Source: Mytilus edulis (lineage: Eukaryota). Taken from it: a DNA stretch of 64,000 nt. The DNA is taken from contig NC_092352.1 in assembly GCF_963676685.1 (NCBI RefSeq), positions 73,470,001-73,534,000 on the forward strand. Direction: 5' to 3'. Every line of letters starts with the position of its first letter. Within the stretch, counting starts at the first letter, position 1. The position numbers and the translations under genes are program-made. The notes under the pieces were generated by a model. That model did no database searches. It was not told where the DNA came from and saw nothing but the letters and a program-made list of their open reading frames with translations. Below, piece by piece: positions 471-51,965 of the stretch.

Positions 471-2153
471 CAGCTATTGTTTTTCTTTGGGATCCGAAAA
501 GAATGCCAATTGCCACCTGCTTTCTTTTCTTTATCCTTTTTCCCAAAGTCATCAGCTTTATTGTCTTTCTGGAACTTCCTGGGAACAGATCTCACAGAAG
601 ATTTGTTATAATTAAAACCTGAGCGTTTATCAGCTAAATTAGCATTGTTATAATTAACATGAGTAGAACTATTATTAGAACTATATCTAGGAGCTTTATT
701 TTGCCAATCTTGACGCACCTGAGTTGATTCAAACTTTCTCTTATTATTGTTTTTATACTCTGGTAAGAGATCGTCTAGTTGCTCACGTTGTTCTTTACGT
801 TTCAAGTTTGTCTTCCAAACCTTTACCAAATACACCCTCATTCGAAAGAGGTAAATACAACACTTTAGCCTGTATATCTTTCAAGTTATTTAAACCAGAC
901 TCAGTAGCTGCAGCTTTCCTGCGTATCATATGGTTAAACGCCCCTGTGCGTCCTACCTGACCAAGAGACTTTGTCGAAATTGCAAACAAGTCCTTCACCA
1001 TTTGACAAGTTTCATCACTTACATTTTCATTCTCAACTCTCTCTAATAAGGTTCCTAATGTTTGTTGCATATACAACACTGATATAATACCCATACGTGA
1101 AGCCACCTGCCCTTGATAGGCTAGATTTTCTATCTGTTTTAAAGGTTGAGTAACCAATTGCTTGTGTTTGTCCCATGACTTAACACTATTTGTACCATGA
1201 ACAGTTCTTATCATTGGTTCTAATAAATCATCCAAACTGGGTACTTGTAAAAAGCTTTTAGATTTATCATTAACCGGAAAACAACTACGGTATTCATCTT
1301 TAAAAGCAGTAAGTTTCTCTGGATTTGTAGTTCTCCAGGAACGTTCTAGAATTCTAACCTGCGCTTCATCAATGATCAAGCCACCTGAATTATCAGAAGA
1401 TTCTGAAGGAATATCTTCCTTGAAAAGCTTAGACAATAAATTTAAATTATCTGACTGCTTGTCTACAGTTTTATTGTTATTATTATCAATGTTACTTGTT
1501 TGTCTCTGATTTGAATGACTTTCAACATTGTTATTAATTATAGTAGGTTGAGTTTGTAGATATTGGCTAAATCTTTCAACATTTCTAGATTTATTGCCAG
1601 CCTGAGAATAAACACTTACAGGACTACCAAGGCCACGAGAATATTCATCCTCTACATCTGATGAACATAGACCAAGTAAATCAGCCTTTTCACGACTGTC
1701 TATATGAAGAGAAATTTCTGACCTATTGTCAAAATCAATATTTCTAATAATTCTAGGACTTCCCAAGTCCTCATCAAGATTTGCATTCAAAGAAATTACC
1801 GGTCTACGCTCCCCTGTACTTGGGACGTTATCCGAACTTTGTTCTCTCTGCGTGGCTAAACCACCAGATTGAGAAATCTCTGCAACAGTCGAACTACCTG
1901 TAGTAGCACATGACTTGTTCAAAACTGCAAATAGCATATCTATTTTCTTATCAAACCTGTCCTCCATACTGGTTAACTTATTCTCAAGTTCAGCCGTCTT
2001 TGACACACGTTTCTTTTTCTTTGAAGAAGAGTCTTTTGTTGTCCTCGCCATTTTTTTCACGAGAAAATCACCCGTTGGCGTTTCACCTGCACTATCTGAA
2101 TCTAAATTTTCAGCATTTGCGTCAGCAAGTGAGAGTCTATACTCTTCAGCCAT
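470..2153 (-). pseudogene. DIRS gag-like ORF1 with one frameshift near 800
   Basis: ORF 795..2153 ends LEDKLET*. The natural continuation KRKEQREQLDDLLPEY... is in the frame of ORF 470..841, consistent with an indel in a short A-run. Confidence 0.75.
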
Positions 2154-3589
2154 CGTCCAATATGAACGGACGATAATATCAAACGTACATAAATAAAAAT
2201 TTCAACAACGAGACTATAGTAGGAAGTCTCAAAGTGAGAACGTCTTATTTTGTTGCCGCCGAAAGATAAACTGAGGAGGCCTTCACCCGGATGATCAATG
2301 TTAGATAGATGTTTGAAATCATCCAGGTGTTGCGAGTTATGAGAACGTTGTAAGGGAGATAATCCTTATGTGTATTCCTTGACTGGTAAGTAAAAATATA
2401 TATGATATAAAATTGTGTTTTTGGTTAATCCGCAGCGGTAACCAAGGAAAAAATCAACATGATCAAGGAGAAAGAAGCTAAAACAACACAATGAAACCAA
2501 TAAATGTATCTGGGAGTTAAAGCAAATCATTCAGTTATTGATTTATCTACTATTTATCAATTTATTTAATTGATCCAAACATAGAAACCAACATCTTAGA
2601 TTAAGTGTATAAGATGTTTCACCATGACCAATATCTTTATTTTTCAAAATGAAACACTTCGATGATATGAATCTGTCTTTAAAAAATAATAAAAAAAGTT
2701 ATTATACGAACAAATATCAGTTGCATTCATGTAGATTATGTGCCATTCATATTATCAGATTCTAACTGCCATGGAATGATTAAAAACAAATATTTTATTG
2801 CTTTTGACGTGGTCTGAAACATTTCTATAGAAAATGTGTAATTACTTGATAACGTAGAGTCGTCGATTACCAATAACCACAAAATGCATTATAAATTTTA
2901 ACCATCGAACAACAATATCTCTACAATTAATGTATTACATCTTACATGTAAATCTTTTGAACTGTTCGTTTAGTTTATCTGAGTAATGGTAGTGTTAACC
3001 GTAAAACAACAAGTAAACTAACATAACACTTACATACTCTTTCGACAGCATTATACGACTTGCTTCGTCGTATGACTTAAAATATTACAAAGAATTCACT
3101 GATACGTTGACCAATACGATGCATGTATCTGTGTGTTGACTTATAAGCTAAACGGATTTTTTACTTTGAACTACCATATCTGGTTTAATCATACTTTTAC
3201 CGATTTTGTTCTTTCATCAATTCTATCATTTCAACGGAGTGTGGATATTTATACAGATGATAATGCATTGTGGAAGATATATACTTTGTCGACCGTTATC
3301 GTTCATTATTAAGTTACTAGTAAATCGATTTCCTTTGTTTGTATGTGTTATCTGTGTTATCTCGATTTGTTGTCTTAATTATAGATTTGATTTGAGATCT
3401 TGTTTAATGCCATTGCTAAATTGAAAATATTAAGATGCTTTTAGCCTGTGCGTATTTATATTCCCCACTTAATTCCAACTTGAATAGGTAGCGATTCTGG
3501 AAGAAAGATGCGAAGATGCCATAGTGTTATGCAAACTCATAAGTCAAAGAATAACCAAAAAACGTCAGAGAATAAACAAAGACGATTCA

Positions 3590-8039: not shown

Positions 8040-8660
8040 TTCTAAAAATTGTAAAAGCAATAAGTCATTTTTATAAATGTCCTGTATACAAAACTTTGAA
8101 ATTTTCGAAAAACTAAGGATTTTCTTATCCCAGGCATAGATTACCTTAATCGTATTTGGCACAACTTTTTTAAATTTTGGATCCTCAATGCTCTTCAATT
8201 TTGTAAATGTTTGGCTTTATAAATTATTTTGATTTGAGCGTCACTGATGAGTTTTTATGTAGACGAAACGCGCGTCTGGCGTACTTAATTGTTATCCTTG
8301 TAGCTTTGATAACTATTTACAACATTTGGTCGATGCCACTGCTTTTGGACGTTTCGTCCCCGAGGGTATCACCAGCCCAGTAATCAACACTTCGATGTTG
8401 ACATGAATATCAATAATGTGGATTTTTTTTTTATAAATTTCCTTTTTACAAAACTTTGAAATTTTCGAAAAACTAAGGATTTTTTTTTTTATCACAGGCA
8501 TGGATTACCTTAGCCGTATTTGGCACAACTTTTATGAAATTTTGGATCCTCAATGCTCTTCAATTTTGTAATTGTTTGGTTTTATAAATTATTTTGATTT
8601 GAGAGTCACCGATGAGTCTTTATGTAGACAAAACGCGCGTCTGGCGTACTTAATTATAAT
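8040..8660 (+). mobile_element. Non-LTR retrozyme-like tandem repeat (~365-bp period) with two type I minimal hammerhead motifs
   Basis: Direct repeat (e.g. acaaaactttgaaattttcgaaaaactaagga at ~8087 and ~8448). Hammerhead at 8238-8282 with intact CTGATGA/GAAA core; second at 8603-8647 with CCGATGA and AAAA core mutations. Confidence 0.8.
8238..8282 (+). ncRNA. Type I minimal hammerhead ribozyme
   Basis: gcgtca-CTGATGA-gttt ttatgt agac-GAAA-cgcgcg-TC-tggcgt, with the palindromic helix III characteristic of Penelope/retrozyme minimal hammerheads. Confidence 0.8.
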
Positions 8661-35684: not shown

Positions 35685-36769
35685 GAAACCAGGGGTTTCA
35701 AACTGACCAATGAACAAGAAAAAGAAATTAAACGATTTAACAATAGAAAGTATAAACAGCGTGAACAATTTCTTAGAGAATATCAATATTTATCGATGAA
35801 AATGTTATGAAATCCTAATGCCAATATTTTTTTCTACATTTTCAAACCAGTGACACCATTTACTGACAAACAAAAAGAAAAGAATAACAATTATATGATT
35901 TTTTGAATAAGCCAAAATTGAAATTAAAATACACAACTGATAATTATCCTCTGGGAAATCTTAACAAATCGAAGACATTAGCAAATAAAATGATTGTTTT
36001 TCAGTATCAGGCTATAGTTTAAACAGACATCATTGTAAAAAAAGACACATACGTAACATACAAAACTGTTCAATAAACACTTATAGATGCACTCTAAAAA
36101 TATTCCTTCCCCCCCCCCCCTTATTTTGAAATAAATAATTATACTTATTACGAACGTACGTAAGAATGAAAACAACACGTAATTAAATTCGTGCGTCTTA
36201 GGAGCTTTTGATGTTTTACCTCTACAACCGAATATTTGATAGCCAATGATGTATAAAAACATGAATAGTTGAAGAGTAATATTTCTTGCATGAGTACTTA
36301 GTATTGATTAAACTGCGAGGAGAATCACCTGCATTCACCAAACTAATAACGGCTTTTATGGCAAAATATCAATTGAAATACTGTTTTATGCTTAGATTAT
36401 TTCCAGATAATATGTTTACTTGATATTTAGTAGTTGTAAATTATTGTTAAATTCTGCATGTACTTATAATGATTGAATCATATTTTGTTGATTTAGAGTG
36501 TACTTATTGTTTATTTCTTTACATCTGTTTATTTTCCATTGGTCTCTACTAGATAGTTGCCTGATTGGAAATAATACCACATCTTCTTTTTTGTTTAAGG
36601 CAGAATTTTTTTTATACTTGTGCGCCATACGTTTGCTACATATATCATGTACAAGGCTATACACTGAATAATTTATAACTGTGAAATAGTGATTATTGTT
36701 CAGACAGTGCTAAATGGAGTAGTTGATTGATAGATTACATTGTTTTCAAAGTCATACAATGATCTATAT

Positions 36770-37190
36770 AAAGAAGAAGATGTGGTATGATTGCCAATGA
36801 GACAACTATCCACATAAGACCTAACAACTATAGGTCACCGTACGGTCTTCAACAATGAGCAAAGCCCATACCGCATAGTCAGCTATAAAAGGTCCCGATA
36901 AGACAATGTAAAACAATTCAAACAAGAAAACTAACGGCCCTATTTATGTAAAAAAATGAACGAAAAACAAATATGCAACACATAAACAAACGACAATCAC
37001 TGAATTACAGGCTCCTGACTTGGGACAGGCACATACATAAATAATGTGGCGGGGTTAAACATGTTAGCGGGATCCCAACCCTCCCCCTAACCTGGGACAG
37101 TGGTTTAACAGTACAACATCAGAACGAACTATAAAAATCAGTTGAAAAAGGCTTAACTCATCAGATGGACAAAAATACAAGTGGACAACA
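36770..37190 (+). repeat. Dispersed repeat (gatgtggtatgattgccaatgagacaact family); second copy 38166-38371 is truncated by the PLE
   Basis: Two near-identical copies. The first is absent from the paralogous region upstream of copy D (~19230). Confidence 0.8.
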
Positions 37191-38412
37191 TGTGATACCA
37201 TTAAAAAAAATCTTATAACCAAAATGTCAATTTTCTATAACATTTATGTGATTTACTTTATTTTTATATCCTCATTCTCAACTTTTCAGGATGAAATACA
37301 GGACAAACATAAAAGTAAATACTTGTATTCTATATAAACATAATCGTTGAAGAAAATGATTAGTTTCATGCTTAGATATACTGCAAAAAGATAAGAAAAA
37401 CAATTAAAAATAGTAGAGGTTGCATTATTGACTTTCTCATGATTTTCTGTATTGGTTTTATGTTTGTATTTTTAAACAGGAACAACTTAGATCAACCCAG
37501 TCCTGGATGTTCCGTTTTCGGTTTATTGATGCCATGGACTTGTCTGTTAGGATTCAACTTCTGCATTTGCATGTTTCTCCTCTCTTTAATTGTCTTTATT
37601 TTCTCCTTCTTGTTGTTCAAAATTTTGTTCTGTGTGTGGCAAGCAACTGTATGTTAACATTTTTAAAACCAGTCTTCACATATATCAACGCATATCGTAG
37701 AAATTAAAAAGAAAAAAAAAACACAACTAAGAAAGAATAGCAACCGGTGGCATTCGTGTAGTAGGCGTAACATAATGTTTATTGGTAACCGATTAAATCT
37801 GCTATAAAAAATATAAAAAAATATTTGGTAGTTAATAGATTATAAGTTTTTCATCATATACTTGATATCCGAAAGTATAAAATGGTAATTTCGGATATAA
37901 GTCACTTCAAAACTATTAGAAAACCAATAAAAACTTGTGAAAACCCGCTGAAAATTGCTTTCGTCTTGCGCTTGATATCAGAAAAATATCAAAGTTAGAC
38001 AACCATTCAGCTGAAAGACATTTCCTAGGTTACCGTTTTAAATTCATGAAAACAAAGTTCTAGGAAAAAGCCAAGTCTGCACTAGTTTATATCTTGATTT
38101 ATATGCAGTTAAAATTTCTAAACGGACATTCCATACTTCAATAGTTATGATAAATATAATCATATAAAAAAGAGGATGTGGTATGATTGCCAATGAGACA
38201 ACTATCCACAAAAGACCAAAATGACACAGACATTAACAACTATAGGTCACCGTACGGCTTTCAACAATGAGCAAAGCCCATACCGCATAGTCAGCTATAA
38301 AAGGCCCCGATAAGACATTGTAAAACAAGTCATACGAAAAAACTAACGGCCTTATTTATGTAAAAAAATGATGAATGTCTGGAAGTACCTATCAGCCACG
38401 TTTGCCTATTCT

Positions 38413-38512
38413 CCAGGACCCAACACGTCGTGTTTCTGCAATACAGAATAGGACAAACTCTATAATATTCCGTGGCTCATATGAAGGGTGGGTGCTTCAT
38501 CAGGGGTTCTGA
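38413..38512 (-). ncRNA. Second copy of the PLE 3' hammerhead
   Basis: Reverse complement of 41730-41829, with a mismatch and a wobble in helix I. Confidence 0.65.
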
Positions 38513-38531
38513 CCCAATCCTTCATATTGTA

Positions 38532-40472
38532 CTAAGCTTTGACTACCGATCTAGTCAGTATTTCTTTTAAGTTCCGATGTCTACTATACGCCACCATTGG
38601 GTGGTTTTGGAAATAACTCCCTACATTTCGCATTGCGAACTTGTTTTTTATAATGTTTTCGTAAAGCTTTATTTATATTTCCTAACGAGAAGTGATATTT
38701 TGTTACAAATACTAGTGGTATCTGCTTGTCAGATTCTTGATTAAAGCGGAGTAACTCTAGTCGTTCGATATTGAGAGCCGATTCACAGCTACGAAGTATT
38801 TCAAGGTCGTTATATCCCCTTTGCTTAAGATGGCCTTTGAATATACAAAGAGTACATTTTGTATCTTAAATTTTGCGTGTTGCTGTTGTTTCGGTGGTGG
38901 CGAATAGCTTCCCCTTTTATAAATCCGGAGAAGACTGTTGGGTTATGCATAGACGTTCTATCTAAATATTGAAACGTATTAGTAGGTTTGGTGTAGCTCT
39001 TAATATCAAGGATACCGGTGTTCCTGAACCTCAACCCTTTATGTACGACTGTATCGAGAAAGATAATTTCCTCGTTTGAAATTTCAAACGTAAACTTTAA
39101 TAAAGGGTGATGATCATTTGCTATTTTAAAAAACTCCTCAACTTCTCCTCGTGATGAATGGGCTATTATAAACGCATCATCTCTATACCTTCCGTAAAAT
39201 AAGATCTTATTTTTATACTTATATTTTTCAATAATTTCATTGATAACTTCGAATGCTCTAATATCACAAATTTCTGGGCTGCATTTACTTCCCATACTAG
39301 CGCTTATTTTCTGTACAAAGTATCGGTCATTAAATTCAAAATAATTGTTTTTCAACACTGTGGCTACTAACGATTTAATTGTTTCACAGTTAGGCAATTT
39401 TATCGGATAATCTTCTTTTACTGCACTGTAATAAGCCCGTCCAACAGAATGAATGAGTTCATTGAACTCCATGTTTGTATACATGCTGGTGCAGTCAAAA
39501 GAAACTAAGAGGCAATCCCGATCAGGCCTTACATTTTCTATTTTATTTATGAAATCCCCACTATCTCTAATGTAACTGTTCTGTCTTTTAACTATAGGTA
39601 TCAAAAAGTAATCAATAAATTTGCTAACCCTTTCGGTGACAGAGTTACATTGAGAAATAATCGGTCTGCATGGGGGTAATTCATTTACTGTAATCGTTTG
39701 TTTTTTTATCCCTTGAAAAACAAGTTCACTTAATTTGTGAAGTTTAGGAAGAAGAAAAAGACGACCCAATCTGGGTCCCTCTTTCGATGAGCCATGGAGA
39801 AAATCAAGAGTTATCCCATCAATCTCACCATTGTCAAACGTCTTGCTGATTTGTGTTTGTACATTATTTTTAATCAGTAATATATTAGGTTCTTGTATCT
39901 CCGTGTAATGGATATAGTTTAACTGTCTGAACCCTTCTTTAATGTAGTGTGTCTTTTTAGATATTACAATTGCGCCTCCCTTGTCGCTCTTAGAGAAAAT
40001 AATATACTGCATGCTTTTCAAAGATCGTAATCCTAGCTGTTGTTCTTTGGTGAAATTGTAATAATTATTTCGTAAATCAAGATTTGATAATTCAAACTTT
40101 GTTAGATCTAGATAATTTTCAAGTTCAAAGCAAGCAGGTATCGGTTCATAAAATGATTCGGAACGGATGTATTCCCCGACTTTCTGTATTGCCAAAATGA
40201 AAACGACATCTAAGTTTTCTGGCAAATTCATTGAAGTCTGCCATTACAAATCTGCCTATATTACACTTCTTAGGCATAAGTATAAATTTCAAACCTTTAC
40301 CTAGAACAATGTATTGGTCGTCTGTCAATTGACAGTTGGCTAAGTTATATACATATTGTTTAGCTTTATATACCTGTCCTTTTTTTTGTTGTCTTTTCTT
40401 TGTAGAAACCCGATCGAGTTTTCTTATTTTCTGTTTAACAGTTTTTACTTTCTTTTTAGATCAGCGAGCCAT
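38532..40472 (-). pseudogene. PLE reverse transcriptase ORF (~645 codons, disrupted), no GIY-YIG endonuclease
   Basis: Starts MAR*SKKKVK...VYNLANCQLTDDQYIVLGKGLKF; frameshifts near 40165, 38850 and 38605; ends ...NLKEILTRSVVKA* at 38532. Confidence 0.85.
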
Positions 40473-40659
40473 TCTTAATATTGACGATTGCCAATCTGAT
40501 AGTTATAAATGCGATCACAATTATAACTTTTACGCCTAAAACAAACCACAATGGGAAAACCAACTGTCTGCAATCACAGACAAATGGAAACTGAATGCAC
40601 ACATTTTATCGTACATCTACTTAATGATAAATCCTGATGGTACTTCCAGACATTCAACA

Positions 40660-41710
40660 GTCATCGAAAGGGTTAGCAAATTTATTGATTACTTTTTGAT
40701 ACCTATAGTTAAAAGACAGAACAGTTACATTAGAGATAGTGGGGATTTCATAAATAGCATGTATACAAACATGGAGTTCAATGAACTCATTCATTCTGTT
40801 GGACGGGCTTATAACAGAGCAGTAAAAGAAGATTAACCGATTAAATTACCTAGCTGTGAAACAATTAAATCGTTAGTAGCCACAGTGTTGAAAAACAATT
40901 ATTTTGAATTTAATGACCGATACTTTGTACAGAAAATAGGCGCTAGTATTGGAAGTAAATGCAGCCCAGAAATTTGTGATATTAAAGCATTCGAAGTTAT
41001 CAATGAAATTATTGAAAAATATAAGTATAAAAATAAGATCTTATTTTACGGAAGGTATAGAGATGATGCGTTTATAATAGCCCATTCATCACGAGGAGAA
41101 GTTGAGGAGTTTTTTAAAATAGCAAATGATCATCACCCTTTATTAAAGTTTACGTTTGAAATTTCAAACGAGGAAATTATCTTTCTCGATACAGTCGTAC
41201 ATAAAGGGTTGAGGTTCAGGAACACCGGTATCCTTGATATTAAGAGCTACACCGAACCTACTAATACGTTTCAATATTTAGATAGGACGTCTATGCATAA
41301 CCCAACAGTCTTCTCCGGATTTATAAAAGGGGAAGCTATTCGCCACCACCGAAACAACAGCAACACGCAAAATGTAAGATACAAAATGTACTCTTTGTAT
41401 ATTGAACGGCCATCTTAAGCAAAGGGGATATAAGGACCTTGAAATACTTCGTAACTGTGAATCGGCTCTCAATATCGAGCGACCAGAGTTACTCCGCTTT
41501 AATCAAGAATCTGACAAGCAGATACCACTAGTATTTGTAACAAAATATCACTTCTCGTTAGGAAATATAAATAAAGCTTTACGAAAACATTATAAAAAAC
41601 TAGTTCGCAATGAGAAATGTAGGGAGCTATTTCCAAAACCACCAATGGTGGCGTATAGTAGACATCGGAACTTACAAGAAATACTGACTAGATCGGTAGT
41701 CAAAGCTTAG
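40660..41710 (+). pseudogene. Inverted, 5'-truncated PLE RT copy
   Basis: ORFs 40624..40836, 40885..41418 and 41402..41710 match the minus copy. A 57-nt deletion removes KIENVRPDRDCLLVSFDCT. Confidence 0.88.
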
Positions 41711-41729
41711 TACAATATGAAGGATTGGG

Positions 41730-41829
41730 TCAGGACCCCTGATGAAGCACCCACCCTTCATATGAGCCACGGAATATTATAGAGTTTGTCCTATTCTGTA
41801 TTGCAGAAACACGATGTGTTGGGTCCTGA
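41730..41829 (+). ncRNA. Type I hammerhead ribozyme with expanded helix II, in the PLE 3' end
   Basis: Helix I tcaggaccc/gggtcctga, CTGATGA 41739-41745, GAAAC 41806-41810, helix III acac/gtgt, cleavage triplet GTT 41818-41820. Confidence 0.7.
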
Positions 41830-41961
41830 GGAATAGGCAAACGTGGCTGATAGGTACTTCCAGACATTCAACATGTAGAGTCATGCCTAATTGTTCTTGA
41901 CACTCGTATTTATCAACTGATTTTTTGCTGCAATGTTACACAATTTAACTAGTTACAGTCA

Positions 41962-45284: not shown

Positions 45285-51965
<6,681 letters not shown>

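Follow-up and report, generated by a model that had tools for sequence, protein, structure and literature searches.

The mussel Mytilus edulis harbours a lineage of Penelope-like elements (PLEs) that forms a broad clade without an endonuclease (EN), is non-telomeric and has been recently active. One of its elements lies in a 64,000-nucleotide stretch of contig NC_092352.1 (assembly GCF_963676685.1, positions 73,470,001 to 73,534,000; hereafter the window, in whose numbering positions are given). By a working rule, PLEs with an EN (EN+) occupy the inside of chromosomes and those without one (EN-minus) their ends; few exceptions are in print, and the route they take is described as unknown (PMC8557442). 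The mussel genome contains many EN-less families that are young, intact and scattered, with EN+ Neptune elements as an internal control. A first-pass annotation of the window, made from the letters alone, had proposed a compact endonuclease-less lineage that inserts internally, using nicks made in trans or pre-existing breaks. Absence of the EN and internal insertion hold genome-wide, and breaks fit better than trans nicks from the sampled EN+ Neptunes; the lineage is not simply compact, as most families examined carry a separate, helical first open reading frame (ORF1). Because the clade, large and found in marine animals, has no DNA-cutting enzyme, yet is spread over chromosomes rather than tips, it likely copies into breaks not of its own making. 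On balance we favour a reading in which its reverse transcriptase (RT) would prime complementary DNA (cDNA) on free DNA 3' ends at pre-existing breaks, with template jumping, in a deep and likely Neptune-derived EN-less clade.

The missing EN is a trait of the lineage and not a loss in the window copy alone. A profile built from 54 EN+ tails found no GIY-YIG domain in any frame of the 64-kb window, neither at the ends of the element nor elsewhere, and hit both control EN+ loci (E < 1e-42). EN profile matches were likewise absent beside every EN-minus RT end in loci L062-L080 and L111-L240 and from four complete EN-minus family units, and were present in all 30 EN+ loci. An RT search returned many intact proteins of 642-650 amino acids whose common end point is the P..AY.R..NL..S segment. 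Named proteins of the clade type come from Mytilus, Pinctada, Saccostrea, Saccoglossus and Montipora, those matching the window RT at 90-95% identity being Mytilus proteins; a GIY-YIG match occurs in 0 of 13 close relatives and in two distant ones. A profile search of 1.84 billion proteins added further EN-less relatives, plus EN+ proteins. In the resulting tree (179 rows selected, 167 kept including the window, after thinning of near-identical rows at >72% and removal of rows that did not span the RT), the window RT lies deep in a 78-row branch (SH-like support 100) without an EN+ member. None of the 77 database RTs in this branch, which come from bivalves and a hemichordate, has a GIY-YIG domain; 65 stop no more than 10 residues from the profile end and all stop within 0-67 residues, the longest tail being 67. 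The sample is biased to EN-less proteins because the search was seeded with such proteins, and broken EN+ genes may account for some of the short gene calls in other parts of the tree.

That the window element is merely a deleted copy of an EN+ element is hardly credible. Its own decay would suit such an origin, as would a 58-codon EN fragment 3 kb from another copy of the same family (L066); yet this fragment is stray and isolated, with no RT end beside it, the family 3' end is sharp, complete units of four families are EN-free, and 77 RTs stop at the same place. The first-pass annotation had named as fatal a family consensus running into a GIY-YIG domain, or an EN on a separate reading frame or exon; neither appeared. 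The RT itself is of the PLE and telomerase reverse transcriptase (TERT) type, with N-terminal GLKF, DKG and core motifs. A model of the intact relative P0002 (predicted local distance difference test, pLDDT, 92) has telomerase RT as its best match, and a PDB sequence search with the same protein gave 0 matches. Since the terminal segment forms part of the RT's own C-terminal domain in this model, the protein would end at a domain boundary.

The family of the window element, family A, was found by a 25-nt end pattern (36 matches in 26 loci on 11 chromosomes). Whether all copies stop at one point had been posed as a check, and nearly all do: copies share the same 3' base within a few nt, about 160 nt after the RT stop and behind a large-loop hammerhead ribozyme, and their 5' truncation points are scattered. 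The longest copy, L062 (3,203 bp), has a partial tandem duplicate of its 3' portion in front of it, the pseudo-long terminal repeat (pseudo-LTR) layout usual in PLEs, and contains about 980 bp absent from the window copy, with an ORF1 of about 200 codons. The ATG at 40472, previously taken as the point from which the coding region could be followed, is thus not the family start, as full copies extend by that length further 5' and carry an ORF1 that had been overlooked. The family A ORF1 is 35% identical to that of a sister family (E 8e-20). A model of the ORF1 group has three long helices and no strands (pLDDT 70), and because it is all-helical ORF1 would not be a GIY-YIG domain. No Pfam family scored above cut-off in seven ORF1 proteins, no usable Atlas match was obtained, and blastp gave no match to the N-termini of eight EN+ proteins. 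Three copies (L003, L006, L094) have the same flank after their 3' end, which in L006 is duplicated on both inverted arms; this common flank likely reflects 3' transduction or fold-back.

Several EN-less sister families are intact in the mussel genome and form head-to-tail arrays of up to five units. The family B unit (2,566 bp; 91 end matches in 59 loci on 12 chromosomes) holds a single 647-aa frame and nothing else above 120 codons, and its head-to-tail arrays are 98-100% identical; ORF1 accompanies the RT in family C (3,824 bp) and family D (4,262 bp). Families B and C are covered by contigs of RNA-type runs, which cannot show transcription, strand or ends; no GT..AG joint between ORF1 and RT was seen, an uninformative negative. 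Fusion of the ORF1 region to the RT is frequent among marine-metagenome loci, and a common terminal motif that looks, by eye, like the 3' end of the mussel families occurs at most 200 nt after the stop in 39 of 62 loci, against 2 of 3,100 shuffles. A set of metagenome EN-minus relatives (L143-L220) ends at a conserved motif that lies 30-80 nt beyond the RT stop, and no hammerhead intervenes.

Rooted trees of 47 hand-picked rows, with seven Poseidon-type proteins (labelled here by domain order) as root, joined all 19 EN-minus rows in one branch (Shimodaira-Hasegawa-like approximate likelihood ratio test, SH-aLRT, 82 and 89; 99 for a 16-row core). This branch is sister to three EN+ Neptune-type proteins (SH-aLRT 97) inside a Neptune-type group supported at 96-99, the label resting on linker and EN; the rows include no named reference sequence. 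The RT phylogeny asked for at first pass places the element among Neptune-type proteins in the best trees. In approximately unbiased (AU) tests, a position outside the EN+ Neptune-type group is not rejected (p 0.23), nor is union with two long unnamed EN-less proteins that in the trees both fall outside the group (p 0.35). As these tests reject neither alternative, derivation from Neptune by EN loss, though likely, is the best reading rather than a proven one. EN+ Neptunes and the mussel clade are alike in the C-terminal P..AY.R..NL segment (as in Neptune1_Ap/Ac), the pseudo-LTR, the tandem and inverted layout and the hammerhead (PMC8557442); the clade differs in having neither the CX2-5CxxC linker nor the GIY-YIG domain with CCHH, and its mussel families carry a separate ORF1 and show no (TA)n preference. 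Beside these two groups, sixteen Neptune-like RTs (P0164, P0175, P0177, P0183, P0190, P0199, P0200, P0204, P0213, P0225, P0240, P0242, P0243, P0247, P0250 and P0253) have their Zn linker and GIY-YIG internally: the two follow the thumb RGY motif and precede the terminal P..AY.R..NL segment instead of coming after it. They form one branch, 14 of the 16 have a Pfam GIY-YIG match, and their arrangement is a third domain order, absent from the available portion of PMC8557442.

The copies insert inside chromosomes. None of 85 loci (26 of family A, 59 of family B) lies within 0.1 Mb of a chromosome end, and five lie within 1 Mb, three from family A and two from family B. A telomere-type EN-minus element, like Coprina or Athena, that had been carried inward by rearrangement is accordingly a very improbable source, for all that it would share two reading frames, no EN and a full-stem-III hammerhead with fungal and rotifer EN-minus PLEs (PMC6431247, PMC4209133), and that a grouping with the two long EN-less outgroup proteins is not rejected by the AU test. 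Telomeric hexamers are missing from the 3' ends and from within 30 nt of them (0 of 56 flanks), though the assembly reaches telomere repeats at six of nine ends checked; near-identical young arrays lie 12-32 Mb from chromosome ends; and the trees set the clade among Neptune-type RTs. Coprina and Athena/Terminon also resemble the clade in their head-to-tail chains, in a hammerhead near the 3' end and, as far as the model predicts, in a TERT-like RT fold. The mussel elements differ from them by the lack of a reverse-complement telomeric repeat after the hammerhead (Terminons carry a telomeric-repeat tail; PMC6431247), by their short 643-aa RT and by inverted pseudo-LTR structures in the style of EN+ PLEs.

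The insertion sites also differ from those of EN+ elements. Within 30 nt of the 3' end, (TA)4 occurs in 0 of 56 EN-minus flanks and at 22 of 29 EN+ Neptune ends of the same genome (Fisher p 1e-14); the 28 family A flanks in this test include the window element itself and two near-duplicates, which leave the zero count unchanged. Target-site duplications (TSDs) of at least 7 bp were seen in 2 of 55 cases, both of them duplications of the element's own end, with a shuffled mean of 1.5. At the L062 empty site, about 25 bp of target were lost, an outcome readable from repeat flanks in one of 46 insertions. At the window locus the left end interrupts a dispersed repeat, as had been noticed at first pass (87% match of 38162-38371 to 36766-36959), the remainder of that repeat is missing, and 1.5 kb of right flank gave no significant match to its continuation. 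Elements of different EN-minus families are joined directly in six cases, five of them from one inter-family table (two of F to A, one of B to J to B, and three of D with B). We found no genuine junction between EN-minus and EN+ elements, and no EN-minus piece in 30 EN+ loci. From the inter-family table, 8 of 13 junction rows, including the only EN+ row, were dropped because the first 94 nt of the family J reference proved to be host flank.

These observations bear on the possibility that the EN-minus RT acts with nicks supplied in trans by an EN+ PLE or another nuclease-bearing element of the same genome. Donors would be at hand, as the genome contains many near-intact EN+ Neptune reading frames (50 matches), and a motif like the reverse complement of the family A 3' end occurs in some EN+ 3' untranslated regions (5 of 19 loci). 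The contrast in (TA)n, the lack of a TSD excess and the absence of EN+/EN-minus junctions argue against it, as does the lack of cross-mobilisation in Adineta (PMC3846280), and we consider trans nicking unlikely. The motif in those five loci (L255, L259, L264, L266, L267) resembles the 3'-terminal 30 nt of family A in opposite orientation, and is possibly a shared promoter element.

A hammerhead about 20 nt past the stop, claimed at first pass, is present in both arms of the window element: stem I starts there, and the CTGATGA core, read by hand and with a script, lies at 41739 and 38503. Rfam gave no hammerhead match in the element, probably because of the large loop II. In the right arm, stem II has 3 bp flanked by unpaired A's beneath this loop, and cleavage is predicted after 41820. 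Nine EN-minus families of the genome have a hammerhead motif; in family H the script found none. Families A, B, C, E, F and G carry type I hammerheads 14-31 nt after the stop, with a stem/loop II span of 48-137 nt and stems that differ in sequence and still pair. In families D, I and J the hammerhead is of the permuted type III, its loops I and II are both large, and it lies 70-270 nt past the RT stop (L229, L236 and L222). In most families stem III is 6-7 bp and the hammerhead could fold as a monomer. The co-resident EN+ Neptunes differ in having minimal hammerhead cores, where the EN-minus families have full ones with large loops. Animal PLEs are described with minimal type I hammerheads and fungal and protist EN-minus PLEs with type I forms with a large helix III; the available portion of that source mentions no type III hammerhead in PLEs (PMC4209133). 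From the motifs and fragment ends we infer that the EN-minus hammerheads may cleave: 6 of 39 family B 5' ends fall within 4 nt of the predicted cut, three of them exactly, with one in the 107 nt upstream (p 1e-6, for a window chosen after the data were seen), and fragments of families J and F start exactly at predicted cuts. The large loop II of families A and B can base-pair with sequence on either side of stem I (window 41715-41870; L225 3000-3260; partly by eye), which suggests a putative switch or pseudoknots around the ribozyme.

Under priming at breaks, tandem copies would be transcribed and the hammerhead would cut the RNA to give template 5' ends, a step to which the sister-family fragments starting at the predicted cut lend support. 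The RT would then start at a fixed point near the conserved 3'-terminal motif and, at the template end, would jump to RNA of the same or another EN-minus family, producing arrays and chains. At the window locus, both ends of one break might each have primed a cDNA and the two cDNAs been joined in the middle; we propose that the 3' ends point outward, without TSD and with loss of target DNA, because each break end primed one arm. These steps are read from junctions, and priming at telomeres or breaks has already been proposed for EN-deficient PLEs (PMC3846280). Alternatively, cDNA synthesised away from the chromosome, by self-priming or from circular RNA processed by the hammerhead, with rolling-circle arrays, could be captured at breaks by host end-joining. 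We rate this as improbable, if a shade less so than nicking in trans. Exact head-to-tail arrays of up to five units, possible monomer folding in most families, the lack of TSDs, the L006 fold-back copies that duplicate their flank and the circular templates proposed for PLEs (PMC4209133) would all agree with it. Precise 3' ends in nearly all copies with scattered 5' ends are, however, what target priming predicts, and mixed-family chains require template jumps and not one circle; no circle junction was found in contigs of RNA-type runs, which are weak data.

Several points weigh against priming at breaks or loosen its evidence. Three family A loci lie 0.68-0.79 Mb from a chromosome end, where 0.6 would be expected within 1 Mb; these chromosome-5 loci have flanks in common and are probably one duplicated region. 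Since TA runs align between copies, the (TA)n control errs on the high side, and the EN+ control consists of the Neptune families most like one query, so that Poseidon, Naiad and internal-EN families of the genome would be further candidate nick donors. TSDs can disappear with age, and insertions of EN+ PLEs have TSDs of 9-10 bp in some cases and none in others (PMC3846280). Evidence for target deletion comes from one readable site and the window locus, and the inverted layout is not diagnostic because it is common in EN+ PLEs too. In family A, 0 of 42 5' ends lie exactly at the hammerhead cut, and its stem II is atypical. A fuller picture, which we advance tentatively and with somewhat less conviction than break priming itself, is a phylum-spanning clade (bivalves, hemichordates, corals) that arose by one ancient EN loss and lives by break-healing, in which a telomerase-sized RT and a conserved 3' RNA motif would permit priming on any break and the chaining, into one insertion, of RNAs from several families cut by hammerheads of type I and type III.

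Among known systems, the shrimp element MjPLE01 is reportedly linked to telomeric repeats; the mussel clade is not. MjPLE01, from the kuruma shrimp, and other EN-minus Neptune subclades also have a Neptune-like RT without EN, a comparison made by description only (PMC8557442). The same source names MjPLE01 among EN-minus families that occasionally arise within Neptune and Chlamys, losses being not unusual, and the EN-minus tag in its Fig. 8 may cover members of the mussel clade. Chlamys PLE-X of Chara and Selaginella is likewise EN-less, with hammerheads, internal insertion (genome-wide in Chara) and a route called unknown, and differs in belonging to another clade, the N-terminal-EN group with a CxC motif, in plants and algae, and in being rDNA-targeted in spike mosses (PMC8557442). 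The N-terminal GIY-YIG and CxC linker of Naiad and Chlamys are absent from the mussel families, in which the upstream region is the all-helical ORF1 and full units have no EN. Internal RT initiation has been shown for an EN+ PLE (PMC11167929); the available portions of bioRxiv 10.64898/2026.07.22.740005 and PMC12602865 have no bearing on EN loss. EN loss within Neptune thus has precedent; we found no description of this broad non-telomeric EN-minus clade in the literature, Repbase not covered, and some of its families may already be catalogued.

The window copy itself is dead, decayed and ordinary debris. It is one inverted, head-to-head insertion with both 3' ends outward (Table 1), and its arms are 97.5% identical over 1,119 nt. 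Both arms are 5'-truncated and carry stops and frameshifts. The RT reading frame (RVT_1) previously followed from the ATG at 40472 does have a basic N-terminus, but is broken: in the left arm codon 4 is TGA and the frame shifts near 40158, 38867 and 38601, with the PPMVAY segment out of frame with the upstream RT, and the right arm holds the 3' half of the RT only, with an internal stop and a deletion that takes out the first catalytic Asp motif. By segment, the left-arm RT is 65-77% identical to P0002. Both arms do end in a TAG after SVVKA (38534-38532 on the minus strand, 41708-41710 on the plus strand), as first reported, but this counts as one observation, since a private net +7-nt insertion, absent from 15 other matches listed, is common to both arms and marks them as derived from one donor rather than independent. 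The 21-nt piece at the centre is joined to the left arm beside a common CTGAT.

Table 1. Features of the PLE insertion in the Mytilus edulis window (hammerheads and motifs as predicted)
Feature	Position	Strand	Remarks
Left arm	38369..40639	-	5'-truncated; family positions 979-3203 of the 3,203-bp unit; without ORF1
Right arm	40660..41873	+	element 3' half; 57-bp deletion in RT core; RT stop 41708-41710
Pseudo-LTR remnant at inversion centre	40639..40659	+	21-nt piece of the element's own 3' end
RT reading-frame remnant	38532..40472	-	intact relatives 643 aa; ends ...SVVKA-stop; no EN
Type I hammerhead, left arm	38413..38512	-	60-nt stem/loop II span; stem I 4 bp left after point change
Type I hammerhead, right arm	41730..41829	+	stem I 9 bp; core at 41739; stem III 4 bp
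3'-terminal motif and family 3' end, left arm	38369..38412	-	
3'-terminal motif and family 3' end, right arm	41830..41873	+	CGTGG core common to other EN-minus families
Host dispersed repeat, cut by left 3' end of element	38162..38368	.	87% match to 36766-36959, ending at the junction

The insertion is intergenic within a PAN-mucin-fibrinogen gene cluster, at 73.5 of 88.3 Mb on C9. The tandem genes of this cluster (window 5673-55646) recur with a period of about 12-19 kb and encode a signal-like start, a PAN domain, a Thr-rich mucin exon, with 84-bp repeats at 49613-50396, and a fibrinogen C domain. Elsewhere in the window, a 468-codon open frame at 795-2201 on the minus strand has no Pfam family and presumably resembles a DIRS-type gag reading frame, and short hammerhead cores at 8244 and 15919 (plus strand) lie in an abundant small, retrozyme-like repeat.

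Because the RT is a single-domain chain of 643 aa with a predicted TERT-like fold, its RNA end is defined and intact copies occur naturally, the clade makes nuclease-free priming, the role of the hammerhead and template jumping directly testable. If the fuller picture of an ancient, break-healing clade is true, it would offer a living model, away from telomeres, of how a relative of TERT primes without a nuclease.

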